In this document: one piece after another, positions 2,464-49,977 of the stretch
How positions within the stretch are numbered: position 1 is the stretch's first letter
How the letters are laid out: the number at the start of each line of letters is the position of its first letter
Origin: Ostreococcus lucimarinus
Lineage: Eukaryota
Assembly: GCA_000092065.1 (NCBI GenBank)
Contig: CP000591.1
Strand: one strand, 5' to 3'
DNA length: 64,000 nt
Made by a program: the position numbers and the translations under genes
The notes under the pieces: model-generated
Database searches by the model: none
The model's input: the letters and a program-made list of their open reading frames with translations, nothing else
Told to the model about the DNA's origin: nothing

Positions 2464-2696
2464 CGCGTCGTCGCGCGGCGTCGCCGACGCGCGCGGCGGA
2501 CGGCGGCGCGTCGAGACGACGGGCGCGATCGCGCGCGTGCGAACGTCGAGCGCGCGACGCGCGCGACGGCGCGGACGAACGATCGGATCGGAAAGGATTC
2601 GAATAGGACGTCGCGGACTTTGATTCGACGTGATTTGATTTGATTTCGAAACGGGACGGCGAGACAGACGACGCGCGCGACGAGGGCGCGGCGAGG

Positions 2697-4412
2697 ATGG
2701 ATTCGGTGACGTCGGTGTTTGGAAATTGGTTCTCGAGCGCGCGGGACGACGGGAGCGAGAGCGACGACGGGAGCGATGCGGCGGCGCGGGAGGCGGGATC
2801 AGAGAAGAGCGACGACGCGCGGGACGAGGACGGGGCGACGAGGGCGGACGAGGACGCGGAGGCGAGGGCGTTGCTGCCGCCGGCGACGACGCTGCATCCG
2901 TACGAGGACGTCAGACGATCGGTGGAGGGATTAGGGACGAGGAGACACGATCACGATTATCCGTCGGGGCTGACGAACGGGGGGAACACGTGCTTCGCGG
3001 CGTCGGCGTTGCAGTGCTTGCGACGGGCGACGCCGCTCACGGCGTGGTTCGACGGCGTGGAAAAGTTTCACGACGTCGCGCGGTGCGCGGAGACGAGGAA
3101 GTTTTGCGTGGTGTGCGAGTATTCGCAACATTTGGAACGCGCGATGGCGTCGAGGGACGCGCACAGCATAGGGAGGTTGACGAAGGACATTAGCAAGGTG
3201 GCGAGACAGTTTAGACGCGGGCGGCAGGAGGATTCGCACGAGTTCATCAACGCGCTGTTGGACGCGATGCACGTGATTTTTTTGAAGGATCTCGGAGGAG
3301 AGAAGAAGTACGATTTGCGCACGCGAGAGACGACGGTCATTTATCACGTCTTCGGTGGGTATACCCTGGGCACGGTGAAGTGCTTGGAGTGCGGGTACGT
3401 GAGCAAGAATTTTCAAAGCACGCTCGACATTCCGCTCGAGGTGACGGGAAAGATTGGCTCCGTCGAGGAGGCGCTTCGAGAAAACTTTTGCACGGAGGAA
3501 GTCCTCAGTGGTTCGAACAAGTACAAGTGCTCGAAGTGCAAGGCGTTGGTACGGGCGAAGAAGGGATCGAAAATCCACGTGTCGCCGAATATTTTAACCA
3601 TTCCTCTAAAACGGTACTCCACTGGACGGTTCAGCAAGATTACAAAGTACATCAAGTATCCGTCCAACTTTTCGCTGGCTGAGTTCATGAGCGATGATGC
3701 CCCGTATGAAGTCACGGCTCCAGAGTATGAGCTTTTCGGTGTATTGGTTCATCAAGACTTTTACGCCAGCGCGCACTCTGGACATTACGTGGCGTACGTA
3801 AAGTTGCGAGACGATTCCTGGGTGCTGTGCAACGATAGTCGCGTGTCGCCGTCTTCCGAAAAGGATGCGATGAAGCAAAAGGCGTACATATTGTTCTACG
3901 AGCGCGTGCACGCGAGAGGTGCACCACCATTGCGCCCGGCGGGATACTTGGACGAGCTCCGAGCGGCGCGCGACGCCGAACGTGCGGCGACGGCGATGAA
4001 GTGCGAAGACGCGGGGGAGGAACAGTTGACTTCTCGGTTCGATTCGATGAGTGTGAGCGCCACCGCGGTAGATACGGTGAGCGCTTCGTCGACGCGTCCT
4101 ACGAGATCTCCCGTCGTTGTCGCCGAGGAGGTCTCCGAGGAACCGTCAGTGCACATGGAAACGGTGAACGTCGAAAACGGTCGAGAGTTGCGCGTATCGG
4201 TCACTTTGCCTGGTTGTCGCAGCGCTCGCGATATCGAAGTCGAGCTCAGCATGGGGCAGCACGATGTGCCGTCATCGCTTATTATCAAGGCCCCAATGTT
4301 GTACGCGACGCCGGTGAAGGTTCACCTGCCGCCGAACGTGGAAGATCCCGTGAAGAGCTCGTTCGTGCGCAAGACGTCAGAGTATCGCGTGCGGTTTCCG
4401 GTTCGCGAGTGA
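2697..4412 (+). CDS. Ubiquitin carboxyl-terminal hydrolase (USP/UBP family deubiquitinase)
   Basis: Cys box GLTNGGNTCFAASALQCL and His box GHYVAYVK...WVLCNDSRVS. The track ORF 2640 starts on TTG; the first in-frame ATG is 2697. Confidence 0.85.
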   Translation: MDSVTSVFGNWFSSARDDGSESDDGSDAAAREAGSEKSDDARDEDGATRADEDAEARALLPPATTLHPYEDVRRSVEGLGTRRHDHDYPSGLTNGGNTCFAASALQCLRRATPLTAWFDGVEKFHDVARCAETRKFCVVCEYSQHLERAMASRDAHSIGRLTKDISKVARQFRRGRQEDSHEFINALLDAMHVIFLKDLGGEKKYDLRTRETTVIYHVFGGYTLGTVKCLECGYVSKNFQSTLDIPLEVTGKIGSVEEALRENFCTEEVLSGSNKYKCSKCKALVRAKKGSKIHVSPNILTIPLKRYSTGRFSKITKYIKYPSNFSLAEFMSDDAPYEVTAPEYELFGVLVHQDFYASAHSGHYVAYVKLRDDSWVLCNDSRVSPSSEKDAMKQKAYILFYERVHARGAPPLRPAGYLDELRAARDAERAATAMKCEDAGEEQLTSRFDSMSVSATAVDTVSASSTRPTRSPVVVAEEVSEEPSVHMETVNVENGRELRVSVTLPGCRSARDIEVELSMGQHDVPSSLIIKAPMLYATPVKVHLPPNVEDPVKSSFVRKTSEYRVRFPVRE

Positions 4413-5563: not shown

Positions 5564-6091
5564 ATGACGCTCGCGGACGCGCGCGACGGGGACGCGGCGT
5601 TCGAAGCGAACAGAGTCGCCGGGAACGCGGCGTACGACCGCGAGGCGTTCGTCGAGGCGACGGCGCGCTACACGGAGTGCGTCGAAGCGCTGGAGAAACG
5701 CCTCGGTTCGGCGGAGGGCGAAGGCACGGCGCGGCGCGCGTGCGCGATTCGCGCGAACCGCGCGGCGTGTTTCGTGAAGCGCGGTAAGCACGCGCTCGCG
5801 ATGGAGGACGCGTCGTGGGTGATCGCGCGACCGCTCGAGGCGGGGGCGGGGATTCTCGCCAAGGCGCTGTACAGGCGCGCGCGCGCGCGCGAAGGCGTCG
5901 GCGACGTCGAGGCGGCGTTGGCCGATTTGCGGGCGGCGGAAAAGATCGATCCACACGATGCGTTGATTCAAAGCGCATTGAATAATTTCACGTCGGTGTT
6001 CCACATCGCCGTCGTTCTCGATAGAGCGTCGCCGGAGGTGCTCGCGAGACAGCCCGCGTGGCGAAATTTCAAGCCAGAGACGAGGCCGTAG
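5564..6091 (+). CDS. Small TPR-repeat protein
   Basis: Three TPR-like helical repeats (GNAAYDREAFVEATARY..., ANRAACFVKRGKHALAMEDASWVIA, AKALYRRARAREGVGDVEAALADLRAAEKIDP). The first ATG in the ORF 5495 frame is at 5564. Confidence 0.45.
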   Translation: MTLADARDGDAAFEANRVAGNAAYDREAFVEATARYTECVEALEKRLGSAEGEGTARRACAIRANRAACFVKRGKHALAMEDASWVIARPLEAGAGILAKALYRRARAREGVGDVEAALADLRAAEKIDPHDALIQSALNNFTSVFHIAVVLDRASPEVLARQPAWRNFKPETRP

Positions 6092-6124: not shown

Positions 6125-8581
6125 TTACAATCCCTCGCGATTCTTCGCTTGGTCATCCTCTTCTAGCGCCACGAGCGTGGCGTCCACGAGTCTCTCGAGG
6201 ACTTGGGATAGACGCGCGATGCGCCCGCCTTGCTCCGCGTTCTCCTTGACGGCGCTCGGCAACGTCTCCACCGTTTCCGCGATTTTCGTCGCCAGCGAGC
6301 TGATTTTCGATTCTATGATGGTTCGAATCGCTTTGCGTTCGCGCTCGAACGACGCGCACTTGGCCTCGAGCTGTTCGCATCTCGCGCTGGCGTCGTTTCG
6401 GCGTTGGGCGGTGAGCGCTTCCAATCGCAAGCGCACGTTATCGGCTTCAATCTCTTGTAAGGAATCTCGCTGCTCGTTGTTTTGCGTCTCAAGATACGCG
6501 ACTTTCGCACGCAGAAGTTTCAACTCCGACATCGCGTCGTCGCTTTTCCCGTTACCCGATTCCGATTCGCTTTCGCTCCCGACCCATCCGCCGAGCGCGG
6601 CGCGAAGACCGCCGCTCAACTGCGCGTGGAGTTGCGTCTCCTTCACCGCCGCGCGCTTGATACCGAATAGCTCCGCCGTTTTCGCATCTAGAGCATCCTC
6701 GAGTAGAGCTTTCTGCTCTTCGCACGCGCGAACTTGATCTTGCAATGCGTCGATGCGTTCGTCGCGTTCGCGCAGTCGAGCCGTGAGGCCGAGCATGATG
6801 TCGCGCTGCTTCAACAACACTCCCTTGTACCGTTCGACCTCGCGCGTGGAGTCACCAGCCTCGGCGCGCTCGGCTTCGATGCTTTTAAGCTTTCGCTCGT
6901 ATTCCGCGCGTATCGCAGCCACGCTCGAGGGGTCGTCGCCGCCGAGCAATTGACTCTGCATCTCGGAGATGCGCTTTTCTAAATTTCTCTTCTCTTGCTT
7001 TTCGATGAGAAATTCTTGCGATCGCATTTCGAGTTCGGTGATCGCGCGCAGCTTATCCGCCTCTGCGCGGCGTCGTTGCTCGTCCACCTCGAGTAATCGA
7101 CGTTTATCCACTAAATCTTTCGTACGTGTGTCCAACTCGGTGCGCAACTGCCTGAGCTCGCGCTCGTACTTGCGCAACAGCGACTTTTGATCTAAATCCT
7201 CATTCAGCGTCGCCGTATTCTTAATCTCCTTCGCACGACTGGCGAATTTCAACGTCGACAGCGACTCCGCGAAAGCTTCGAGCGCGGGCGAAACCATGGC
7301 GATGACGGTGGTTATGCAGTTACCGCCGAGTGAATCTTCCAAAATGCGCGTCAATTTGGAATCACGATACGGAATGTGCGATCGACCTTTGCTATCCGTC
7401 AAGGCGCTGATGACGTTGCCGAGCGCGCTCAGGCTTTGATTAATCTTTTTACTCTCGTCCAGCCGTTTTCCCGTGGCCCCGGTTAACGACACGCGCTCAG
7501 ATCCCGCCAAATCAACCAAGTTAAGTTTACCGACGGTGATGCTCTGTCGCTGCGCCGGAGCGCCCTCACCCACGTCCACACCGTCCACAGGTTCGTCATC
7601 CTCGGTCGTGCTGTGTTCTATGATGATGGTGAATACGGCGTGCGATCGCGACGAGAGCTCGTTCATCTTCGTCGACCCCGTCGCTCGAAGTTGCGCCCCG
7701 CGCTCGAGCAAACCGTAAATTTCACTCGGCGTCCGCACGACCCATTCCGATTGACCTTCCACGAACACGCCGCGCTTCTTGTCCTCGCGAATGTTCAAAT
7801 TCGTTCTCTCGGGTTTCAACAAATCGCTCACCGTCTCGTTGTAAATCTGCAAGTAACTCACGCGCACGAGATACTTTGACCGCGCGTGCGAGTCCTTGGC
7901 GATGTAATCGAAGATGTCCTCAATCGCGCGCGGAATGATCCCCCTTTCGCGCCCATCCGTCACCGGCGCGTTCCCCGGCAACCCAAACCGCTGTTGTCCA
8001 TACGCCAACATCGTTCCTCGATCACCCTCCATCGTGTACGTCTTCCCCGTCCCCGTCTGTCCGTACGCCAACACCGTGGCGTTGTATCCTCGCAGCGCGT
8101 TCAGCGTCGCCGGCTTCGCGCTTCTCGCGTACACCTCCTCCTGCGTCGCCCTCTCGTCGTACACCGCGTCGAATCCAAACTCATACGTCCTCTGTCGTTC
8201 GTGCGCGCCGTCATCCGCGAACGTCCCTCCCTCCCCGTTCCCCGCGAGCGCTCGCTCGCCGCCCGCGCTCGCCGCGCACGCCTTCCCGCCGCGCGTCGCC
8301 GCCACCGCGCGTTGATACGCCCCTCGCCCCTCGCGCGTCTCTCGCCGCAGCGCGGGTCGCACGCGTATCATCACCTCCACGTTCGACGTCGACGTCGACG
8401 TCCCTCGCGCCGCGTCGTCGTCCCCCGTCGCGCGTCGGTTCGAACGCGCGGCGTCGGCATCCGCATCCGCATCCGCATCCGCATCCGCATCGTCGTCGTC
8501 GTCGTCGTCGCGCGCGTCGTCGTCGCGATTCCGATCTCGCGCGTCGTCGAGCGCGCGACGCTCGACGTCGAGGGCGTCCAT
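6125..8581 (-). CDS. Kinesin motor protein: N-terminal motor domain and long coiled-coil tail
   Basis: Motor-domain motifs IRVRP, P-loop GQTGTGKT, SSRSHAVF and DLAGSE, followed by a coiled-coil tail. The start is taken at MDALDVE (ATG 8579-8581). The track ORF reads on through the upstream tandem repeat to 8947. Confidence 0.85.
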   Translation of the reverse strand: MDALDVERRALDDARDRNRDDDARDDDDDDDADADADADADADAARSNRRATGDDDAARGTSTSTSNVEVMIRVRPALRRETREGRGAYQRAVAATRGGKACAASAGGERALAGNGEGGTFADDGAHERQRTYEFGFDAVYDERATQEEVYARSAKPATLNALRGYNATVLAYGQTGTGKTYTMEGDRGTMLAYGQQRFGLPGNAPVTDGRERGIIPRAIEDIFDYIAKDSHARSKYLVRVSYLQIYNETVSDLLKPERTNLNIREDKKRGVFVEGQSEWVVRTPSEIYGLLERGAQLRATGSTKMNELSSRSHAVFTIIIEHSTTEDDEPVDGVDVGEGAPAQRQSITVGKLNLVDLAGSERVSLTGATGKRLDESKKINQSLSALGNVISALTDSKGRSHIPYRDSKLTRILEDSLGGNCITTVIAMVSPALEAFAESLSTLKFASRAKEIKNTATLNEDLDQKSLLRKYERELRQLRTELDTRTKDLVDKRRLLEVDEQRRRAEADKLRAITELEMRSQEFLIEKQEKRNLEKRISEMQSQLLGGDDPSSVAAIRAEYERKLKSIEAERAEAGDSTREVERYKGVLLKQRDIMLGLTARLRERDERIDALQDQVRACEEQKALLEDALDAKTAELFGIKRAAVKETQLHAQLSGGLRAALGGWVGSESESESGNGKSDDAMSELKLLRAKVAYLETQNNEQRDSLQEIEADNVRLRLEALTAQRRNDASARCEQLEAKCASFERERKAIRTIIESKISSLATKIAETVETLPSAVKENAEQGGRIARLSQVLERLVDATLVALEEDDQAKNREGL
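8457..8510. repeat. Compound microsatellite (gcatcc)6 then (gtc)n, inside the kinesin N-terminus; encodes a (DA)n/poly-D tract
   Basis: Read directly from the sequence. Confidence 0.85.
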
Positions 8582-8619
8582 CGCGCGCGCGCCGCGCGGC
8601 GCCGTGCCGCTGTGCCGCG

Positions 8620-8900
8620 CGCGACGGCCGACCGACCGACCGACCGACCGACCGACTGGTGTACAAACAGTGACACGCGAAATAACCATCGCCGCGACGC
8701 CACTGATGGGAATCTTCACGTATCGAAGAGCCGACCGACCGACTGGTGTACAAACAGTGACACGCGAAATACCCATCGCCGCGACGCCACTGATGGGAAT
8801 CTTCACGTATCGAAGAGCCGACCGACCGACTGGTGTACAAACAGTGACACGCGAAATAACCATCGCCGCGACGCCACTGATGGGAATCTTCACGTAATGA
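8620..8900. repeat. (ccga)n microsatellite followed by three near-identical 102-bp tandem repeats, in the kinesin/AsnRS divergent promoter
   Basis: The unit ccgaccgaccgactggtgtacaaacagtgacacgcgaaata[a/c]ccatcgccgcgacgccactgatgggaatcttcacgtatcgaagag repeats at ~8625, ~8727 and ~8829 with one or two SNPs. It is AT-richer than the surrounding coding DNA. Confidence 0.85.
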
Positions 8901-8945
8901 AGAGCCGCCGCCGGCACACCCCGACGCCGCGCGCGCGCGAGCGCC

Positions 8946-10637
8946 ATGGCGGACGCCCTTGCCTCGACGCTCGACGGCCTGACGCTCGACGGCGCGAGGC
9001 ACAGGTACTCGAAGATCTACGACCGCGTCCCGATCGAAAGCGTGCTCGCGACGGCGGAAAAAGACGCGATCGGACGGACGATCGTCGTCGGTGGCTGGGT
9101 GAAGACGGGACGCGAGGCGGAGCGAGGCGCGCTGCTGTTTCTCGCGGTGAACGACGGGAGCGGACCGGGAAACCTGCAGGTGGTGGTGAAATCCGAGACG
9201 TACGCCGAGCTGGGGGAGCTGAAGACGACGGGGACGAGCGTGGTGATCGAGGGCGAGCTGCGGGCGCCGCCGGAGAGCGCGAAGGGGCAGGCGATCGAGA
9301 TGCACGCGACGAGGGTGCTGATGGTCGGAAAGTGCGACGGCGCGACGTATCCGATCGCGAAGAAGAAGCAGACGCTGGAGTTCCTGCGGGAGAAGATTCA
9401 TCTGCGACCGAGGACGAACACGATCGCGAGCGTGGCGCGGGTGCGGAGCGCGCTCGCGTACGCGACGCATACGTTTTTTAACCAAAATGGGTTCTTGTAC
9501 GTGCACACGCCGTGCGTGACGCAGAGCGATTGCGAGGGAGCGGGAGAGATGTTTCAAGTGACGACGTTGCTGAGCGAGGCGGAGAAGCCGGAGGCGTTAG
9601 AGGCGACGGTGAAGCCGGAGGAGATTGAGGCAAAGCGCGCCGAGGTTTCCGCGTGCGGCGGAGAGATCAAGTCGATGAAGGAGAGTGGGGCGGATTCCAA
9701 GGAGGTGAAGAAGGCGGTGAAGACGTTAGATAAACTCAAGCAAGAGCTGTCGCAGATGGAATCGGCGGCGCGCAAGATTGGCGGGATTCAACGCGCCGAA
9801 GACGGTTCCATCGATTACTCCCGCGATTTCTTTGGCGGCAAGTCGTACTTGACCGTTTCCGGGCAGTTACAGGTGGAAACGTACGCGTGTGCGCTCTCTA
9901 ACGTGTACACTTTCGGTCCGACGTTCCGTGCGGAGAACTCGAACACCACCAGACACTTGGCTGAGTTCTGGATGATTGAACCCGAGCTCGCGTTTGCCGA
10001 CTTGAACGACGACATGCAGTGCGCGGAGGATTACGTCAGGTTCTGCTGCAACTACCTCCTCGAGAACTGCTACGGCGACTTGGAATTCTTTGCCAAGATG
10101 TACGACAGCACGTGCATCGATCGCGTGAAGGAAATTGCGACAACGCCGTTTGGTCGCGTCTCGTACACCGAAGCCATCGATCTCTTGGAAAAAGCCGTCG
10201 CCGACGGCAAGGAGTTCGTCTACCCAGTCTCTTGGGGTATCGACTTGGCCACCGAACACGAGCGCTGGCTCGCCGAGGAACACTTCAAGAAACCCGTGAT
10301 CGTTTACAACTACCCGAAGGACATCAAGGCTTTCTACATGCGCTTGAACGACGACAACAAAACCGTCGCCGCGATGGACGTCTTGGTGCCAAAGGTTGGC
10401 GAACTCATCGGCGGTAGTCAACGCGAGGAGCGATTGGACGTGTTGGAACGCCGAATGGTGGAATGTGACCTCGTGCCGGAAGAATATTCTTGGTACTTGG
10501 ACCTGCGTCGTTACGGCACCGTCACCCACGCCGGTTTCGGCCTCGGCTTTGAACGCCTGATTCTTTTGTGCACCGGGATGGAGAATATTCGCGACGTCAT
10601 TCCGTACCCGCGCTGGCCGAACAACTGCATTAGTTGA
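8946..10637 (+). CDS. Asparaginyl-tRNA synthetase (class IIb)
   Basis: Motif 2 FRAENSNTTRHLAEFWMIEPELAF and motif 3 GGSQREER...GFGLGFERL. An OB-fold N-terminal domain is present. A ~65-aa Lys/Glu-rich insertion between motifs 1 and 2 contains a WHEP-like helix. Confidence 0.9.
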   Translation: MADALASTLDGLTLDGARHRYSKIYDRVPIESVLATAEKDAIGRTIVVGGWVKTGREAERGALLFLAVNDGSGPGNLQVVVKSETYAELGELKTTGTSVVIEGELRAPPESAKGQAIEMHATRVLMVGKCDGATYPIAKKKQTLEFLREKIHLRPRTNTIASVARVRSALAYATHTFFNQNGFLYVHTPCVTQSDCEGAGEMFQVTTLLSEAEKPEALEATVKPEEIEAKRAEVSACGGEIKSMKESGADSKEVKKAVKTLDKLKQELSQMESAARKIGGIQRAEDGSIDYSRDFFGGKSYLTVSGQLQVETYACALSNVYTFGPTFRAENSNTTRHLAEFWMIEPELAFADLNDDMQCAEDYVRFCCNYLLENCYGDLEFFAKMYDSTCIDRVKEIATTPFGRVSYTEAIDLLEKAVADGKEFVYPVSWGIDLATEHERWLAEEHFKKPVIVYNYPKDIKAFYMRLNDDNKTVAAMDVLVPKVGELIGGSQREERLDVLERRMVECDLVPEEYSWYLDLRRYGTVTHAGFGLGFERLILLCTGMENIRDVIPYPRWPNNCIS

Positions 10638-28801: not shown

Positions 28802-30515
28802 CGGCGTCGTCGCCCGCGCGAGCGCGCAGACCCACGCGCACCAACACCATCGAGGCGAAACGAGCCACGGCGACGGAAACTTTGTCACCTTCCCACCGTC
28901 GTTCGCGTTCGGCGTCGGAACGTCGGCGTGGCAGATCGAAGGAAACGGTGGTGATCGCCCGCGATCGGTGTGGGACGCGTTCGTGAGCGAACTAGGAGAG
29001 GAGAAGAGAGTGGAGGCGGAGCGCGGGATCGGCTTTCACGAGCGATACGCGGCGGATGCGCAAATGATGGCGGATGCGGGAGTGAAACATTTCAAAATGT
29101 CCCTGAGCTGGCCGAGGTTGATGCGCGCCGACGGGAGCGCGATCGATGAAGGGTTCGAGTATTATCAGAACGTTTTCGGGGCGCTACGCGAGCGAGGCGT
29201 GGAACCGCACGTGACGCTGTTTCACTGGGACACGCCGATGTGGTGCTGCGCCAACGAAACGATCGCGAGCGGGCGTGGGAGCGTGTGCGAAGGAGCTTGG
29301 GTGAAGGATGAAATCTTGAAAGATTTTGAGAAGTACGCGGATGCGGTGTTTAGTAGACTCGGGAAGGGGATAAAATATTGGACCACAATTAGTGAGCCAA
29401 AAACCGTCGCAGAGATGGGCTACGGTGCGGGCCTTCACGCGCCTGGGCGTCGGAGCGTGGAAGAACAACTTAAAGTGGGGCATAATATGTTGCGTGCACA
29501 CGCTTTGGCGGTGGCGCTCTATAGGGAGAAATATTCCCAGTTTGGAGGGAAACTTTCAATCAATTTGAATAGCGCTTGGGTCGAGCCGGCGTCGGATTCG
29601 CCGGACGACGTGCGTGCGGCGGCAAACGCGATGGATGAAGAGCTTGGATGGTTTGCCGATCCTATTTATAAAGGTGACTATCCGGCGAGCATGCGGGCGA
29701 GATTGGGGAGCTTTCTTCCGGAGTTCACCGAGGAGGAGCGCGTGCTCGTGAAAGGGAGCGTCGATTACTTTGCGCTCAATCACTACACGTCCTACTTCGC
29801 CAAGCATGTGACCGACGCGCAAGCTTCGTCGCAGCTTGGTTTGAGCGGCAGACCTCAGCCGTGGGAGATCACACTAGAGTCAGAAAAGAGCAAGAAACCA
29901 ATCGGCAAGGAGGCGCAAAGCGACTGGTTGCACATCGTGCCGTGGGGATTAGAAAAGGTTTTGCTGCACATCAAGGACAGATACGACGATCCAGCGATCA
30001 TGATCTCGGAGAATGGCGTCGATATCGCCGAGAGGGGCGATATCGCGGAAACTCTGGACGACACAACGAGAGTCAAGTTTATCGATGCCTATCTCGGAGC
30101 CGCTCGCGAGGCGATGCGTAAAGGCGCAAACGTTGTGGGGTACTTTTATTGGTCGATGTTCGACAACGTCGAGTGGGTGGATGGGCGATCGAAACGATTT
30201 GGTTTGGTTTATGTCGATTACGACGGCAAGTACGGCGAAAAGATGAAGCGCTATCCAAAGAAATCTCTCGAGCACTTCTCCTCCTACATGCGAGGAGAGC
30301 ACGCCGAAGAACCAACCCTCGGTGCCGCGCGCGTGCGACACTCGCTCGAAGACTCTTTCGTTCAAGTCGATCCGAGGCGTCAGGGCGAAATCTTCGCATT
30401 GCAAGGCATGGCGTTGACCATCGCCTGCGTCTACGCCGCGGCAGCGGCGTTCGCCGGCGGCGTCAAAATCGTCGAGCAAGACGTCGAGCAAGACGAACGC
30501 TCGTCCCTCGTCTGA
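28737..30515 (+). CDS. Glycoside hydrolase family 1 beta-glucosidase, secreted or membrane-anchored
   Basis: Signal peptide MRRRDRGNDPPMVSSTFVVVLVGVVARASA. GH1 motifs FPPSFAFGVGTSAWQIEG and TISEP (acid/base region), with the nucleophile in MISENGVD. Hydrophobic C-terminal segment ALQGMALTIACVYAAAAAFAGG. Confidence 0.8.
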   Translation: MRRRDRGNDPPMVSSTFVVVLVGVVARASAQTHAHQHHRGETSHGDGNFVTFPPSFAFGVGTSAWQIEGNGGDRPRSVWDAFVSELGEEKRVEAERGIGFHERYAADAQMMADAGVKHFKMSLSWPRLMRADGSAIDEGFEYYQNVFGALRERGVEPHVTLFHWDTPMWCCANETIASGRGSVCEGAWVKDEILKDFEKYADAVFSRLGKGIKYWTTISEPKTVAEMGYGAGLHAPGRRSVEEQLKVGHNMLRAHALAVALYREKYSQFGGKLSINLNSAWVEPASDSPDDVRAAANAMDEELGWFADPIYKGDYPASMRARLGSFLPEFTEEERVLVKGSVDYFALNHYTSYFAKHVTDAQASSQLGLSGRPQPWEITLESEKSKKPIGKEAQSDWLHIVPWGLEKVLLHIKDRYDDPAIMISENGVDIAERGDIAETLDDTTRVKFIDAYLGAAREAMRKGANVVGYFYWSMFDNVEWVDGRSKRFGLVYVDYDGKYGEKMKRYPKKSLEHFSSYMRGEHAEEPTLGAARVRHSLEDSFVQVDPRRQGEIFALQGMALTIACVYAAAAAFAGGVKIVEQDVEQDERSSLV

Positions 30516-31445
30516 CGCCATCGCCCACGATCGACACATAGCAAACAAATTCGCTTAAACGAGTAAACAGTTGAGACTTAGCGCGCGTTGAAACAATCAC
30601 ATGCACGGTATTGAACCATGGCGTGTACACGAGTCTCCGAAGACTCGCGTGCTTCGGGCGCTCCGCGCCATCGCGTCCACGTCGACGCGATGTGACCTTC
30701 GCCACGATCTCGCCCTCCTCGAGCGAGGTTTCGCGAACGCGCTTGCTCGCGACGAGCTCCGGCGCCGCGCAAAGCTTCGCGAGACGACTCGCAGCCGCGC
30801 GCGCACATATCGCTCGGTCGCCCGCGTCTTGACCGGGCGCGAGCGCGATTTGCGCGAGCCGCGCGAAATTTCGGTCCCCCGCGACGCGCGCGTTCTCCGC
30901 CACGCGTCGGTGGCGTCGCAGAAACTTTTTCACGTGCGTCTTCTTCGTCATGCCTCCATGTGACGTTTCGTCTCGGCGTCTCGACCTTGTGACGCGGCCT
31001 CGGACGCGCGCGAGGGCACCTCGGCACTCTGCGACGCGCGCGCGACTCGGCGCGGTCGTCGCGGACGCGTCGCGAAAGAAGAAAAAAAGTCGAGCATCGA
31101 ACCGCGCGTCGTTCGAGCGCCGCGCCGCGGCGCGCGCGACGCGCGGACGCGCGAGATGGGGCGCGTTGAAGCGGCGTTTCTCGGCGCCGGATCCCGCCTC
31201 GGGCGGCGCCTCGGGCGTCGCGCGCGCGACTAGCAAGACACGAAAACGAAGGAAAGAAAGCGCGTACGAATTCTTTTGAATCGATGTGCGCGGCGATGGA
31301 CGCGCGCGCGCGCGTTCGCGCGCCGACTCGCGCGATCGTCGTCTCCGAGACGGGCCGCGCAGACTGACCCTCGCGCAGAGGCCGACGCCAGAAGACACGC
31401 GAAACAAGGCGGCGATAGCGTCCAAACTATCGCTCGCCTGCGGCA

Positions 31446-31478
31446 GGTTAACCCAGGGTTGACCCAAGGTTGACCCAG
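31446..31478. repeat. Three tandem copies of ggtt(a/g)accca, ~130 bp upstream of the DUF829 gene ATG
   Basis: ggttaacccagggttgacccaaggttgaccca, read directly from the sequence. Confidence 0.7.
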
Positions 31479-31607
31479 CCGCAGTACTACACCCTCGCGG
31501 CGCGAGGACGCGAAGGAGGGACAGCTCGCTCGCGCGATCTCGTCGAACGACCTAGAGCCCTCGAAAGTAGCGATTGTAGTACGTCGCGTCACTCGCAGCC
31601 TCGCGCG

Positions 31608-32543
31608 ATGCTTCGAGTCGCCGCCGCGCGCGCGGTCGCGCGCACCCTCGCCCCCGCGAGCGTCCGCGCCGCCCGCCCGCGCGCGCGCGACGCGCGCCGG
31701 GCGCCGTCTCGTCGCGCGGCCGCCTCGTTCGCCGCGAACGACGACGTGCGCGCGATAAAACTCGCGCCGTACTGCGAACTCCTCACGCGGTCGAACGACG
31801 CCGAACGACCGCTCGCGATATGCGTCGGATGGTTTGGAGCGTCGTTGAAACACGTGAAGAAGTATGCGGCGATGTACGTCGACGCGAATTGCGACGCGGT
31901 GGCGATCGCGCCGCCGAGCGCGGCGATGCTCGTGCCGGCGGCGGTCGATGCGTACGCCGACGTAATCCTGCGAGCGCTCGCGCGGCACGTTCGCGGAAAG
32001 TGCGTCGTGCACGTGGCGTCGAACGGAGGGTTCATTTTCGCTGGAAATTTAATGCTCAAGGCGGCGAACGGCGACGCGACGGCGCGCACGATTTTTGAGC
32101 GGACGAAGGGCGTCGTGTTCGATTGCGCCCCTGGAAATTTGCGGCCCGATATCGTGGCGCGGGCGTTCGCGGCTGTCGTTGGAGGCGCGAGCGCGACGAG
32201 TGAGCCATCGCCGTATTTCGAGGTGTTTGCGTCGTGGTTGTTAGGGAGAAGGGTTCTCAGCGAACGTTTGCTGAGGATCGATGAGTTGTGGGGCAAGGCG
32301 GGAGCGCCAGAGTCAATCTTGTTGCGTTGCCCGTCGATGTTCATGTACAGCGAAGCCGACGTACTGATTTCCCCACGCGAGATCGAGGCTTTCGCGACGC
32401 TCAGACAAGACCAAACCGGTCACAGGAGCACTCTTCACAAGTACGACGACGCTGGGCACTGCGAAATTGGCCGCGACGACTACGAAGATTACAAGAGCAA
32501 GGTGACCGATTTCTTAGAGCGCGTCGTGCATTCGGCGGCGTAG
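31608..32543 (+). CDS. TMEM53/DUF829 family alpha/beta-hydrolase-fold protein with an organellar presequence
   Basis: PLAICVGWFGASLKHVKKYAAMY matches the DUF829 N-terminal motif. The presequence is Arg/Ala-rich (MLRVAAARAVARTLAPASVRAARPRARDARR). Confidence 0.55.
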   Translation: MLRVAAARAVARTLAPASVRAARPRARDARRAPSRRAAASFAANDDVRAIKLAPYCELLTRSNDAERPLAICVGWFGASLKHVKKYAAMYVDANCDAVAIAPPSAAMLVPAAVDAYADVILRALARHVRGKCVVHVASNGGFIFAGNLMLKAANGDATARTIFERTKGVVFDCAPGNLRPDIVARAFAAVVGGASATSEPSPYFEVFASWLLGRRVLSERLLRIDELWGKAGAPESILLRCPSMFMYSEADVLISPREIEAFATLRQDQTGHRSTLHKYDDAGHCEIGRDDYEDYKSKVTDFLERVVHSAA

Positions 32544-35555: not shown

Positions 35556-35732
35556 CTCGCGCGCGCGCGCGATCGACGCCGCGGCGGCGAGTGACGGACG
35601 CGATTCGCGCGCGCGCGATTCGCGATCGGTCGCGCGCGGTCGGTCGTCGTATGTGCAAACAGTGAGGAGTTGGTGTTTCGGTGCCGCCGCGCCCGCGCGC
35701 GACGGCACACGTCGACGCCTCGCGCGCGAGCG

Positions 35733-45762: not shown

Positions 45763-47022
45763 ATGGCCTCCAACACGTGCGCCGGCACCGCGGTTCCGCC
45801 TCGCGCCGTCGCGGGCGCGCGCGTCTCGGCGTCGCGCGCCGACATCGTCGCGAAGTGTCGCGGCGTCCCCGCCGGGACACCGCGCCGCGACGCCATGACG
45901 CGCGCGCAGGCGTCGATCGGCGTCGATCGCGCCGTCGCGCGCGCGCGCGCGACGACGCGAACGCCGCGGTGCGCGCGCGCGGCGTTCGCGTCGCGCTCGG
46001 ACGACGCGCCGTGCGTCGTCGACGACGAAGACGCCGAGGCGAAGCGAATAAAACAGCGCGCGCACCGAAAACGGAACCGCGCGCGGTGCAGGACCCGCGC
46101 GAACGAGCGCGTGGACGCGTTGCTCGAGAAGTTTCGCGCGCTGCGACCGCTCGAACGCGCGAACGACGATGGATCGTGGGAGACGGTGTACGCGGAGGAG
46201 GAGGAAGACCGGGACGACGGCGTCGACTGGGACGGGCTGCCGCCGGGCGCGGACCCGTTCGGGACGAATAAGAAGGGTGGACGAGAGCGAGGGATGCGGA
46301 AGCGGAATCAAGTGATGACGTTCGTGAAACACTTGCGAGCGCTACTTTCGCTGCGAGGGCGAAGGGAGATAAAGAGGTGCGTCGATTTTGGATGCGGTAC
46401 GGGGAACGTTTTGATGACGTGCGCGGCGACGTTTCCGGAAATCGACTTCGTCGGCGTCGATTTGAACGCGACGAGCATTGAGATTTTAAACTCGAGGATT
46501 CGGAAATCGGGGTTGACAAACGTCAGCGCGGTGGTCGGATTGATCGAAGACGGCGATACGTTCGGGGCGGACTGCGCGTTGGCGCTGCACGTGTGCGGGA
46601 GCGCAACGGATCGAGTGTTAAACAGCGCGGTGCGAGCGAGAATCCCGTTCGTCATCGCGCCTTGTTGCGTGGGCAAAGTTCAAGAGGGTGGGATGCGAAG
46701 CTTGAATCGCATGCGTAACGATTTGATTTCGCTCGATAAAATAGAAGACATCGAGCGGCCGAGGTCGAGGCTGATGCGAGCCGCGGGTTTCGATTTCGAA
46801 GCGTACATGTCTGCCGCGACTTTGGCCGATTGGAGCGGGCACCAGGGCGTGGATCCGAGCGATCCGAACGAGCCTCTCGCCGCGCTTCCGAGACGCGCGA
46901 AGAGCGCCATCGAGGCGGATCGTGGGGAGTTTGCACGAGAGCACGCTTACGACGTGACGTTGCACAAGATGCCCGCGCAAAGCGGCATTCGCGATGACGT
47001 CTTGGTCGGGATCCCACTTTGA
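45763..47022 (+). CDS. SAM-dependent methyltransferase, METTL25/Methyltransf_32-like
   Basis: Motif I VDFGCGTGNVLM, plus ALHVCGSATDRVLN...PFVIAPCCVG typical of the METTL25 family. The start could instead be 45895. Confidence 0.55.
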   Translation: MASNTCAGTAVPPRAVAGARVSASRADIVAKCRGVPAGTPRRDAMTRAQASIGVDRAVARARATTRTPRCARAAFASRSDDAPCVVDDEDAEAKRIKQRAHRKRNRARCRTRANERVDALLEKFRALRPLERANDDGSWETVYAEEEEDRDDGVDWDGLPPGADPFGTNKKGGRERGMRKRNQVMTFVKHLRALLSLRGRREIKRCVDFGCGTGNVLMTCAATFPEIDFVGVDLNATSIEILNSRIRKSGLTNVSAVVGLIEDGDTFGADCALALHVCGSATDRVLNSAVRARIPFVIAPCCVGKVQEGGMRSLNRMRNDLISLDKIEDIERPRSRLMRAAGFDFEAYMSAATLADWSGHQGVDPSDPNEPLAALPRRAKSAIEADRGEFAREHAYDVTLHKMPAQSGIRDDVLVGIPL

Positions 47023-47181
47023 GCGCTCGCGTGTATTCTTTGTCTAATTGTTTGTCTATTGTTTCTATAGCTAGTCTACGTTGTCATGATTCTTGGTCGG
47101 GATCCCACTTTGAGCGCTCGCGTGTATTCTTTGTCTAATTGTTTGTCTATTGTTTCTATAGCTAGTCTACGTTGTCATGAT
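47000..47181. repeat. Perfect tandem duplication of a 91-bp unit covering the whole stop-to-stop spacer between the convergent methyltransferase and RluA genes
   Basis: tcttggtcgggatcccactttgagcgctcgcgtgtattctttgtctaattgtttgtctattgtttctatagctagtctacgttgtcatga occurs at 47000-47090 and 47091-47181. Copy 1 contains the methyltransferase stop; copy 2 ends in the RluA stop. Confidence 0.9.
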
Positions 47182-48079
47182 GACTCATCAGTCATCGCCT
47201 CGAGCGTCGACCGCAGCAGCGGTTGATCGTCAAACCAGGCGCCCGAATCTTTCGCCAACGCGCTCGGAAAGTGCCGCTCGAACGCCTCGAGATCCCACGC
47301 CTCGCCCTCATCTGGGCTACATATTATCTGAATCGCCGGTCCCAGGCCTAAAGATTCGGGAATGCGTATCGCGCACGCGTGCAAGTAGCATCGTTCCGCG
47401 ACGGCCCCCGAATACACGTCGTCGCCCAACAGCGGCGCGCCGAGCGATTTCGCGCACACTCGCAACTGATGCGTCTTCCCAGTCAGCGGTCGAAATATGA
47501 ACATTCGTCGCCCTTTCGCTCCGAAGCTCACGAATTTCGTCACCGCCGGATTATCTTTCGTGTTCGTCAGTTTGTACGCCTTTCGCCGCGCTCGCGCCAT
47601 GTCCCCCGTCACCGTCCCCATCTTCTTCTTCGGCTTTTTCCCCGAAATCCCGACGTAATACTTGACGATCGCCCGCGTCGCGAACCCATCGCTCAGTTTC
47701 TTCGCCGCGTCCGCCGTCTTCGCGAACACTAGCGTCCCGCTCGTGCCCTTGTCCAACCTGTGCACGGCGCGAAGGCGCTCTTCGCGCGCGTCGCGACTCG
47801 CGCGCAGCCGCGCCAGCGCCCCAGGTTCGAATTCGCTGTGAAACGACACCCCCGGCGGTTTATTCACGATCACCACCGCGTCGTTTTCGTACAGCACGCG
47901 CGGCGTCTTCGCGTTTTCGCGCGTTGTCCCGCTCGAGGTCGTTACCTCGTCGTCGTCGTCGTCGTCGTCGCGCGCGAGCGCGCGCGCGCGCCGCGGCGCG
48001 CCGACCGCGCGCGACGGTCCAACGAACCCTCGACGATGGACCCGCGCGGCGCGCGCGGCGCGGCGCGGCCCCGCGACGG

Positions 48080-48118
<39 letters not shown>

Positions 48119-48119
48119 T
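47175..48119 (-). CDS. RluA-family pseudouridine synthase (RPUSD-like) with a poly-Thr/poly-Asp presequence
   Basis: Motifs VLYENDAVVIVNKPPGV, HRLDKGTSGTLVFAKT (catalytic Asp) and HQLRVCAKSLGAPLLGDDVY. The first ATG is at 48117-48119; the track start is TTG. Confidence 0.8.
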
Positions 48120-48189
48120 CGCAACGCGCGCGTCTGACGCCAGTTCGCGCCGCGTCGTCGAGTCGTCTCGACGCGCGGCGCGCGCGCCG

Positions 48190-49977
48190 ATGGCGTCGCA
48201 AACGGGCGCGATCAAGCGACTCGCGAGCAAGGCGTTTCGAGGCGTGAACGTGGACGGATTCGCGTTCCAATCGCCCGACGTGCGATGCTACGTGCTGACG
48301 CACTTTCACGCGGATCATTACTGCGGCCTGAGCGGCTCGTTCGGTAAGGACGGCGATGAGGCGAAGATATACTGCTCTGAAATAACCGCGCGATTGGTGG
48401 TGGAATTCCTGGGCGTGAAGCGCGAGCGCGTGGTCGGGTGCGAGCTGGGACGGGGGACGACGCTGCGAGGCGCCGGGACGCGCGGGGACGACGTGGAGGC
48501 GACGTTCGTGGACGCGAATCATTGCCCGGGCGCGTGTTTGGTGTTTTTTAGAAATAAAATAACGGGGGAGACGCTGTTGCATACCGGAGATTTTCGAGCG
48601 GCGGCGCGCGTGCGGAACGATGGGACGCTGAGAGAGTTGTTGACGACGTGTCGGGACGGATCGGTGGATGAGGTGATGCTGGATACGACGTATTGCGAAA
48701 AGAAGTGGACGTTTCCCGATCAAGACGTGGTGCTGAATAAGATGAGACAGATCGCGCGGGATGAACTCGCGCGAGAACCGCGGACGCTGTTCTTGTGTGG
48801 GTCGTATTCGATCGGGAAGGAGCGGGCGATTCAAGCCGTGTGTCAGGGGGCGCAGAGTCGAGCGAGCGTCACGGCGAGACGAAAGAAATCGCTCGAATTG
48901 AGCGGGTGGTGGCGCGATGATGCGTTTGTGTGCGAAGACGATGACGCCGAAGAAGCCGCACGATGCCAAGTGCGCGTGTGTGGCCTCGGAAAAGGCTCAA
49001 ATCATCGCGCGATGATGGAAATTATGGCAAAGGAGGCACCGCGATGGCGCGCCGCCGTCGCGTTTTCGCCCACCGGCTGGAGTTATACGAAGAAAATGGA
49101 CGAAGACGGGTTTAACGTGAACCCCTGGATAGAAAACGAAGGACGCACGCGCACGTATGCGATTCCGTACAGCGAGCATTCGAGCTACACCGAGTTGCGG
49201 GAATTTATAAAATTCTTAAAGCCGAAGAAAATCACCCCGACGGTGAACGCGATCACGCCCAAGGATAGAGAAAAGTTGGTGAACAAACACTTTTTGGACT
49301 TGGTGGATTTGAAGCAGGACGTCAATAGGTTGGACTATTACTTCAAAAACAGCGCGTCGTCGATGTTGCGGGCGAAGAAGCAGAAAAAGACGGAGAATGT
49401 CGTCGTAATCATTGATAGCGAAGACGAACGAGACGACGACGTTAAAGTGGAGGCGGAAATCATCTCTGCTCTCGACGGGGACGTCGAAACCGTTCGAAGA
49501 CAGCGCGAGATGTGGAATCAAATAGGTCGCGTGGAGACAAAAAAGCCGCCGAAACCGCTGGAACCTTTCCCTCTCGAGTGCATCGCCGTCGTGCGAAACG
49601 GCGAGTACGACCAGTTTCGTTCTCGAGCGCACGTCGAACAACGACTCAAAGAGCTCGGCGCGACGATCATGTCCCGCGTGACGCCCAACGTCACGCACAT
49701 AATCGTTCCGAACCGAGGTGAGCTCGCGAACGAGGCCAATCGCCTGAGCGCGCTTCGCGAAATGGACGAGTACAAGAACCATCCCACTGCGCTTCGCGTC
49801 ACCGAGGCTTGGTTGATGCGCCACGTGCGCGCGCGCGCCAATGACGTCGCCCCCTCACACAGCGAGGCCGCCGTCGCCGCGTTCGAGGCGAAGAAGCGCG
49901 AAGAAAAACTCGCTCGCCTCGCCGACGCCAAGCGAAAGCGCGACGAGAAGAAGACATTAGCATTAGAAACGCGTTAG
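48190..49977 (+). CDS. SNM1/PSO2-family DNA cross-link repair nuclease (metallo-beta-lactamase plus beta-CASP) with a C-terminal BRCT-like domain
   Basis: LTHFHADHY, DANHCPG and YSEHSS motifs. The C-terminal ~90 aa (THIIVPNRG...ALRVTEAWLMRHV) look BRCT-like. Confidence 0.8.
   Translation: MASQTGAIKRLASKAFRGVNVDGFAFQSPDVRCYVLTHFHADHYCGLSGSFGKDGDEAKIYCSEITARLVVEFLGVKRERVVGCELGRGTTLRGAGTRGDDVEATFVDANHCPGACLVFFRNKITGETLLHTGDFRAAARVRNDGTLRELLTTCRDGSVDEVMLDTTYCEKKWTFPDQDVVLNKMRQIARDELAREPRTLFLCGSYSIGKERAIQAVCQGAQSRASVTARRKKSLELSGWWRDDAFVCEDDDAEEAARCQVRVCGLGKGSNHRAMMEIMAKEAPRWRAAVAFSPTGWSYTKKMDEDGFNVNPWIENEGRTRTYAIPYSEHSSYTELREFIKFLKPKKITPTVNAITPKDREKLVNKHFLDLVDLKQDVNRLDYYFKNSASSMLRAKKQKKTENVVVIIDSEDERDDDVKVEAEIISALDGDVETVRRQREMWNQIGRVETKKPPKPLEPFPLECIAVVRNGEYDQFRSRAHVEQRLKELGATIMSRVTPNVTHIIVPNRGELANEANRLSALREMDEYKNHPTALRVTEAWLMRHVRARANDVAPSHSEAAVAAFEAKKREEKLARLADAKRKRDEKKTLALETR

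Follow-up and report, generated by a model that had tools for sequence, protein, structure and literature searches.

The window analysed here is the whole 64-kb (64,000-nucleotide) stretch of Ostreococcus lucimarinus contig CP000591.1. A minus-strand ORF of 940 aa (6125-8947) carries a kinesin motor domain (Pfam PF00225, E 2.7e-110), whose closest match of solved structure is KIF3B (3.5e-79). The neighbouring plus-strand gene encodes asparaginyl-tRNA synthetase (AsnRS), and its 563-aa product is identical to XP_001420326.1 of O. lucimarinus CCE9901. Exact protein look-up returned no record for either the 940-aa kinesin product or the 818-aa product that begins at Met 8581. The Pfam domains (PF00225 versus PF00152/PF01336) confirm the identities of the two flanking genes given in the initial annotation. 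The genes are head to head, and this order is conserved in all Ostreococcus loci that were fetched. Measured from the kinesin Met at 8581 (minus strand) to the AsnRS ATG at 8946 (plus strand), the spacer is 364 bp, i.e., less than 1 kb, as in a bidirectional arrangement. Such pairs are the norm in Ostreococcus, with 2288 bidirectional pairs reported for O. tauri (PMC4035068). The main features are as follows:

6125..8581, minus strand: kinesin (kinesin-2-like) CDS, 818 aa, with the initiating Met at 8581..8579 (MDALDVE...) and the Pfam motor domain
8582..8945, no strand: 364-bp head-to-head spacer that separates the start codons of kinesin and AsnRS and presumably holds a bidirectional promoter and both 5′ UTRs
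8946..10637, plus strand: AsnRS CDS, 563 aa, with Pfam domains PF00152, PF01336 and PF00458

The AsnRS ATG (8946-8948) overlaps the ATG of the spurious 940-aa ORF (8947-8945) within a CCATGG palindrome at 8943-8950. Because the palindrome holds both ATGs, the false minus-strand ORF seems to begin exactly at the AsnRS start.

Anatomy of the Repeat

A large part of the spacer (261 of 364 bp) is a tandem array. TRF reported a repeat at 8644-8907 with a period of 87, 3.0 copies, 97% matches and a score of 507, and a repeat search of the window placed the starts of the copies at 8644, 8731 and 8818, i.e., with a spacing of 87 and 87, as in a head-to-tail array. The array proper (8644-8904) thus consists of three head-to-tail copies of an 87-bp unit, each equal to 29 codons. 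The initial annotation had correctly recognised three nearly identical tandem copies in the head-to-head spacer, but several of its figures have to be revised: the unit is 87 bp according to both TRF and the repeat search, not 102 bp (or 34 codons); the CCGA run next to it has 7.2 copies rather than six; and the number of positions that differ between copies is three (8772, 8897 and 8898) instead of two. The elements of the array and its flanks are:

8628..8656, plus strand: (CCGA)7.2 microsatellite (TRF, 100% matches), the last three units of which are the first 12 nt of copy 1
8644..8730, plus strand: copy 1 (87 bp), made of (CCGA)3, an invariant 58-nt core, the variable tail TTCACGTATC and GAAGAG
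8731..8817, plus strand: copy 2 (87 bp), with a single change relative to copy 1, 8772 A>C, which converts the AAATAA box to AAATAC
8818..8904, plus strand: copy 3 (87 bp), in which 8897-8898 TC>AT creates TAA and a reference-specific ATG (8897-8899)
8905..8914, plus strand: right flank CCGCCGCCGG, with a CCG-N-CCG microhomology in common with the (CCGA)n left flank, as read from the sequence

The GC content of the array is 0.55, versus 0.88 for the remaining spacer (0.646 for the spacer overall), and the unit is the only AT-richer island of the spacer. The AT-rich character ascribed to the unit is therefore real in its local context. Throughout the window, the GC pattern is reversed relative to the usual one, with 0.70-0.75 in spacers (1-kb windows) and ca. 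0.55-0.60 in genes. AT-richer islands are few in the spacers, and it is these that get tandemly duplicated.

Copy Number and Junctions in Wild Relatives

About 30 orthologous loci were retrieved from Tara, JGI and other marine metagenome assemblies through exact-protein look-ups with AsnRS and near-identical cluster members, and a DNA pattern scan of metagenomes yielded three further orthologous loci. Copies were counted in complete, gap-free spacers; four loci (L013, L024, L026 and L029) have N gaps exactly at this position. The unit was present once in 10 assemblies (L005, L007, L012, L020-L023, L028, L033 and L034) and twice in 9 assemblies (L004, L006, L008-L011, L019, L025 and L027), some of these one- and two-copy counts coming from short-read metagenome assemblies, in which repeats may be collapsed or mis-resolved. 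Three copies are found in the window and at least three in L030. Four chromosome-sized contigs of 550-620 kb (L006 and L009-L011) contain two copies each. The spacer is 189-195 bp long in one-copy alleles and 275-289 bp long in two-copy alleles. Variation in copy number, which had been raised as a question in the initial annotation, is thus demonstrated, with 1-3 copies among orthologous assemblies.

In most alleles, adjacent copies are joined by the standard junction GAAGAG-(CCGA)3-CTGG, that is, GAAGAG-CCGACCGACCGA-CTGG, and in all alleles the last copy is followed by GAAGAG-CCGCCGCCGG. Other junctions were observed in L027, where the copies are joined by (CCGA)6, and in L030, whose first junction has a 98-bp period and contains extra left-flank sequence GCGCGCGACGC. 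Even assemblies with identical flanking variants do not always agree in copy number, and such differences are seen on more than one flanking haplotype. The existence of at least three junction types points to recurrent duplication, and the junction differences, taken together with differences in copy number on the same flanking variants, indicate that gain and loss occurred more than once.

Repeats are common sites of assembly errors, and several metagenome scaffolds are gapped here, as one would expect if the three copies were an artefact of the reference assembly. Against this, independent assemblies, including the chromosome-sized contigs, contain two copies with the same junction, L030 has at least three, and individual copies carry private substitutions. 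In addition, in each of three Logan read-set contigs with the exact reference AsnRS (L001-L003), the first base is exactly 30 nt ahead of the copy-3 variant. With k=31, a branch at this point is to be expected when the reads contain both variant and non-variant copies. The two-copy contigs and the breaks in the read-set contigs argue that the repeat is not a reference-assembly artefact, and we consider the probability of such an artefact to be close to negligible.

The 58-nt core of the unit was nearly invariant over the ca. 45 unit copies compared. In contrast to the core, the 10-11 nt between GGGAATC and GAAGAG (8895-8899 in the window and the equivalent terminal-copy tail in L004-L034) are hypervariable among alleles. 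The variants of this tail are TTCACGTATC, CAATACGTATT, CATACGTATT, TTCACGTAAT, TTCACGTATT, TTCACGTATA, TTCGCGCATT, CACT and a 5-nt deletion. In the majority of wild terminal copies, a perfect 12-bp palindrome, CAATACGTATTG, is formed.

The Array Is Not Part of the Kinesin Coding Sequence

The 940-aa ORF does stay open through the repeat, as had been noticed earlier, the length of the unit is divisible by 3, and several metagenome gene callers report extended kinesin products of 851-884 aa. These observations favour the view that the array encodes an N-terminal extension of kinesin, with 29 residues per copy. This view was confronted with frame statistics from 18 complete orthologous assemblies. 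The distance between an anchor in conserved kinesin coding sequence and Met 8581 is 204-216 nt, varying through GCATCC and TCG repeats, and is divisible by 3 in 17 of the 18, as befits a true coding part. The length of the spacer upstream of Met 8581, on the other hand, falls into all classes modulo 3 (class 0 in two assemblies, class 1 in six and class 2 in ten). Tested as a coding tandem repeat, the spacer did not preserve the reading frame across alleles. The (CCGA)n run has 4, 7 or 8 units among assemblies, a 4-nt step that would shift any reading frame (for instance, between (CCGA)7 and (CCGA)8), and 1-, 5- and 6-nt indels occur within the tail of the unit.

The composition of the array leads in the same direction. 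Its GC1/GC2/GC3 values in the kinesin frame are 0.58/0.55/0.52, with no codon periodicity, and the low GC3, which the initial annotation had also pointed to, is unlike the values of kinesin (0.72) and AsnRS (0.80). Stop codons are absent from four of the six frames of the unit, the chance being ca. 0.32 per frame for random sequence of this composition. No Pfam match was found for the repeat peptide, and the four open frames gave no significant protein match among cluster representatives, the only sequences searched. Kinesin orthologues from other species cover only ca. 79-81% of the 940-aa query. The kinesin ATG and its upstream context, CATCGCGCGCGCGCCGCG, are kept in sister lineage L014, and gene callers picked the start equivalent to Met 8581 in many assemblies, with products of 815-818 aa. 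Taken together, the frame statistics, the variation in the CCGA run and in indels, and the chance-open frames indicate that the 940-aa ORF is accidental and that kinesin starts at 8581. It is thus strongly supported that the array is non-coding spacer DNA, as the initial annotation had proposed, and the probability that it extends the kinesin N-terminus is negligible.

A repeat that is coding lies nearby, at 8457-8525 on the minus strand (kinesin codons ca. 19-42), where (GCATCC)5.8 and (TCG)n encode Asp/Ala and Asp runs. The lengths of this microsatellite differ between wild assemblies by multiples of 3 in 17 of 18 cases, in contrast to the non-coding CCGA run. The exception is L011 (a 620-kb contig, positions 5600-5640), with 209 nt in the Asp-repeat region and a called gene split into 748 and 67 aa; this 1-nt anomaly is probably an assembly indel or frameshift error and not a real frameshift.

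The Unit in the Sister Lineage and Beyond

In the sister lineage L014-L018, whose AsnRS has 97% amino acid identity and 91.5% identity at 4-fold sites, a single diverged copy of the unit is located between the same CCG-rich flanks. The presence of a diverged orthologous copy with the same flanks argues that a single copy is the ancestral state of the spacer and not an insertion. Three blocks, AAATAACCA, CCACTGATGGGA and CGTATCGAAGAGCCGCCGCCG, are conserved between the two lineages; with 9-21 consecutive identical bases where the background identity is 70%, they make a footprint that is only suggestive. In more distant Ostreococcus (L035, L039 and L040), the unit is not recognisable, and the gene pair is still head to head. 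Deep conservation of the unit is thus not observed in these lineages.

The initial annotation had also raised the possibility of a dispersed or introner-like family; a mobile element of this kind would have inserted into the spacer and been amplified there. For a 44-nt piece of the unit, the number of matches expected by chance is 0. No copy was found outside the array in the 64-kb window with up to three mismatches. A scan of metagenomes with a lineage-tolerant pattern gave three matches, all of them at this same locus, and two scans of viral contigs gave none. Neither terminal inverted repeats nor target-site duplications were detected at the array; the flanking CCG repeats are also present in the outgroup, and relatives have a diverged copy at this position, not an empty site. 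From the 64-kb window and the metagenome and viral contigs searched, we regard a dispersed element as very unlikely.

When the window was scanned with k-mers from the unit, the matches outside the array were only to generic CG-rich words, such as CGCCGCGACGC, and to isolated 10-mers. The motif CAAACAGTGACACGCG had been claimed to occur upstream of other genes here as well. This claim does not hold: within the window, the motif is confined to the three copies, even when three mismatches are allowed, and the one 10-mer that recurs outside of the array, CAAACAGTGA at 35656, is at chance level.

RNA Structure and Non-Coding RNA Searches

The imperfect palindrome that had been noticed in the unit is present, with 5 + 4 bp formed by 8668-8672/8701-8705 and 8676-8679/8693-8696. 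No significance could be attached to it, since its folding does not stand out from that of shuffled sequence (z between −0.86 and +0.42).

Each unit might also be a small ncRNA gene, e.g., for a snoRNA or a medium-sized ncRNA, the array then being a tandem cluster. In O. tauri, 138 snoRNA candidates and 116 medium-sized ncRNAs have been described, some of them intergenic (bioRxiv 10.64898/2026.07.10.737489), and the near invariance of the 58-nt core would be in line with such a function. However, this invariance is expected, because the haplotypes concerned are ca. 99.8% identical overall. The folds of the unit on both strands were indistinguishable from those of shuffled sequences (z from +0.42 to −1.38). 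A search of 8300-9100 against Rfam produced no match in the array even at E <= 10, and there was none window-wide at gathering thresholds; ARAGORN found no tRNA, and inspection of the unit revealed no proper C/D or H/ACA boxes. An ncRNA cluster is thus a very unlikely explanation.

Candidate Promoter Elements

From its position and the weak phylogenetic footprint, the spacer, with its array, is presumed to serve as a bidirectional promoter. The sequence features that may be relevant are:

8680..8685, no strand: AAATAA/TTATTT box in copy 1, a candidate TATA-like element in both directions and the most AT-rich element of the spacer
8687..8689, minus strand: ATG in copy 1 (MVISRV...), located before the TTATTT box when read towards kinesin and in frame with kinesin only if (CCGA)n = 7
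8880..8882, plus strand: ATG in copy 3 (CTGATGGG) that precedes AsnRS and, in most alleles, does not share its frame, as read from the sequence

Equivalents of the box are found at 8767-8772 in copy 2, as AAATAC, and at 8854-8859 in copy 3. The box is part of the AAATAACCA block that is conserved in sister lineage L014. It is located 92 nt upstream of the AsnRS ATG in copy 3 and ca. 100 nt upstream of the kinesin Met in copy 1. The change to AAATAC is a single event and is compatible with redundancy of the middle copy.

In each direction, an upstream ATG is found just behind the box (8880-8882 on the plus strand and 8689-8687 on the minus strand). In the P0008/P0010 allele, a 5-nt deletion brings the ATG at 8880-8882 in frame; AsnRS is called 22 aa longer there, and products of 585-626 aa have been called in the allele with this deletion. 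The placement of transcription start sites was deduced from the positions of the upstream ATGs and from a Tara unigene label. In the label for P0003, the ORF starts at nt 49, which corresponds to a 5′ UTR of at least 48 nt and would put the 5′ end of the AsnRS transcript near 8898. The ATG at 8880-8882 suggests that AsnRS transcription may start downstream of it. Start sites ca. 30 nt on either side of the box would fit a shared core promoter.

Assignments of transcription factor sites (an ACGT core, the CAATACGTATTG palindrome of wild terminal copies, TAACCA and GAAnnTTC) were dropped as unsupported. Among the candidates considered, none is kept in the sister lineage except for the AAATAACCA block.

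Another repeated motif was noticed elsewhere in the window. At 31446-31478, an 11-bp motif, GGTTGACCCAG (aggttaacccagggttgacccaaggttgacccag), is present three times in tandem near the boundary of ORFs 30463-31467 (minus strand) and 31470-32543 (plus strand); it could be a triplicated binding site.

Discussion

The array has the properties of a minisatellite or VNTR: its units are arranged head to tail, the unit length of 87 bp is within the 10-100 bp range, and the copy number varies. We consider it likely that this non-coding, copy-number-polymorphic minisatellite arose by duplication driven by CCG microhomology and that what was duplicated is the AT-richer, putative promoter core of the spacer. 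At its start, the unit has CCGACCGACCGA, which is part of the CCGA run upstream, and the array ends against CCGCCGCCGG.

The following sequence of events can be envisioned. The ancestral spacer would have contained one AT-richer core of ca. 75 nt, with (CCGA)n to its left and CCGCCGCCGG to its right. Slippage in replication, or unequal exchange, between the CCGA and CCGCCG microhomologies would then have duplicated the core together with three CCGA units. Joint duplication of the core and three CCGA units would account for both the 87-bp period and the GAAGAG-(CCGA)3-CTGG junction. The duplication has recurred: one, two or three copies are found in wild populations, with at least three junction types. 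The unit may hold the shared promoter core, i.e., the AAATAA/TTATTT box with two start regions ca. 30 nt on either side of it. Where several copies are present, kinesin would mainly rely on copy 1 and AsnRS on copy 3, the nearest one in each case. Additional copies would increase the distance between the core promoters as well as the number of binding sites, and their effect on expression may be modest or neutral.

One can also imagine that duplication of the promoter core has been both recurrent and selected, either uncoupling kinesin from AsnRS or tuning dosage, and that the alleles are maintained in the ocean for this reason. Three observations are compatible with selection, without demonstrating it: there are at least three junction types, copy-number differences are not restricted to a single flanking haplotype, and the spacer of L040 has a 119-bp duplication of unrelated sequence. 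We find this scenario unlikely.

The L040 duplication (3635-3882; 119 bp x 2.1, 86% matches) is in the kinesin/AsnRS spacer of an Ostreococcus lineage whose AsnRS is 83% identical. Homology of its unit with the 87-bp unit was considered, and the comparison was not convincing. Since ca. three such duplications are present per 35 spacers of the window, the finding of a duplication in the same spacer of L040 is not a significant coincidence. Two duplications of this type in the window are perfect. One (2395-2461; 35 bp x 1.9) affects an AT-richer island (TGGTCCGTGTGTTTCATTAATGAGTCTCGCCGTGC) of a GC-rich spacer that precedes a ubiquitin-hydrolase-like ORF (2640-4412). The other (47000-47181; 91 bp x 2.0) is located in a tail-to-tail spacer, duplicates the last ca. 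23 nt of ORF 45763-47022, including its TGA, and extends up to the stop of ORF 47175-48230, which is convergent. Like the kinesin/AsnRS array, these duplications and that of L040 are near-perfect local copies of AT-richer islands in GC-rich spacers, although the sequences of their units are unrelated to the 87-bp unit. The location of the 91-bp duplication in a 3′-3′ spacer indicates that such duplications are not specific to promoters.

Minisatellites are defined by units of 10-100 bp, and tandem repeats are enriched promoter-proximally in the plants surveyed (PMC3887541). The array described here is an ordinary instance of this well-known class of promoter-proximal minisatellites or VNTRs, not a new kind of element. 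In yeast promoters, variable tandem repeats change expression, and the human INS VNTR is another promoter VNTR. As in promoter VNTRs, 10-100 bp units are arranged head to tail just upstream of genes, their copy number depends on the individual, they probably originate through slippage or unequal exchange, and spacing and the number of binding sites could tune expression. Unlike in promoter VNTRs, there are only 1-3 copies, and the unit corresponds to what is presumably the whole core of a very short bidirectional spacer, not to a low-complexity motif. The locus resembles bidirectional promoters of compact genomes in that the start codons are 189-364 bp apart and synteny is conserved across Ostreococcus lineages. 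It differs from other bidirectional promoters in that the putative shared core is duplicated, so that kinesin and AsnRS may each have come to rely on a physical core of their own.

The analysis corrects an annotation trap, into which kinesin has fallen repeatedly, being over-extended by 30-120 residues, and AsnRS in one allele, by 22. The practical value of the array is modest. With 1-3 copies of 87 bp and a variable CCGA run, it makes a PCR-sized marker that separates O. lucimarinus-like haplotypes in cultures and in metagenomes. Its alleles also form a natural series with which the influence of core-promoter spacing on divergent transcription could be studied, in a eukaryote whose genome is among the most compact.
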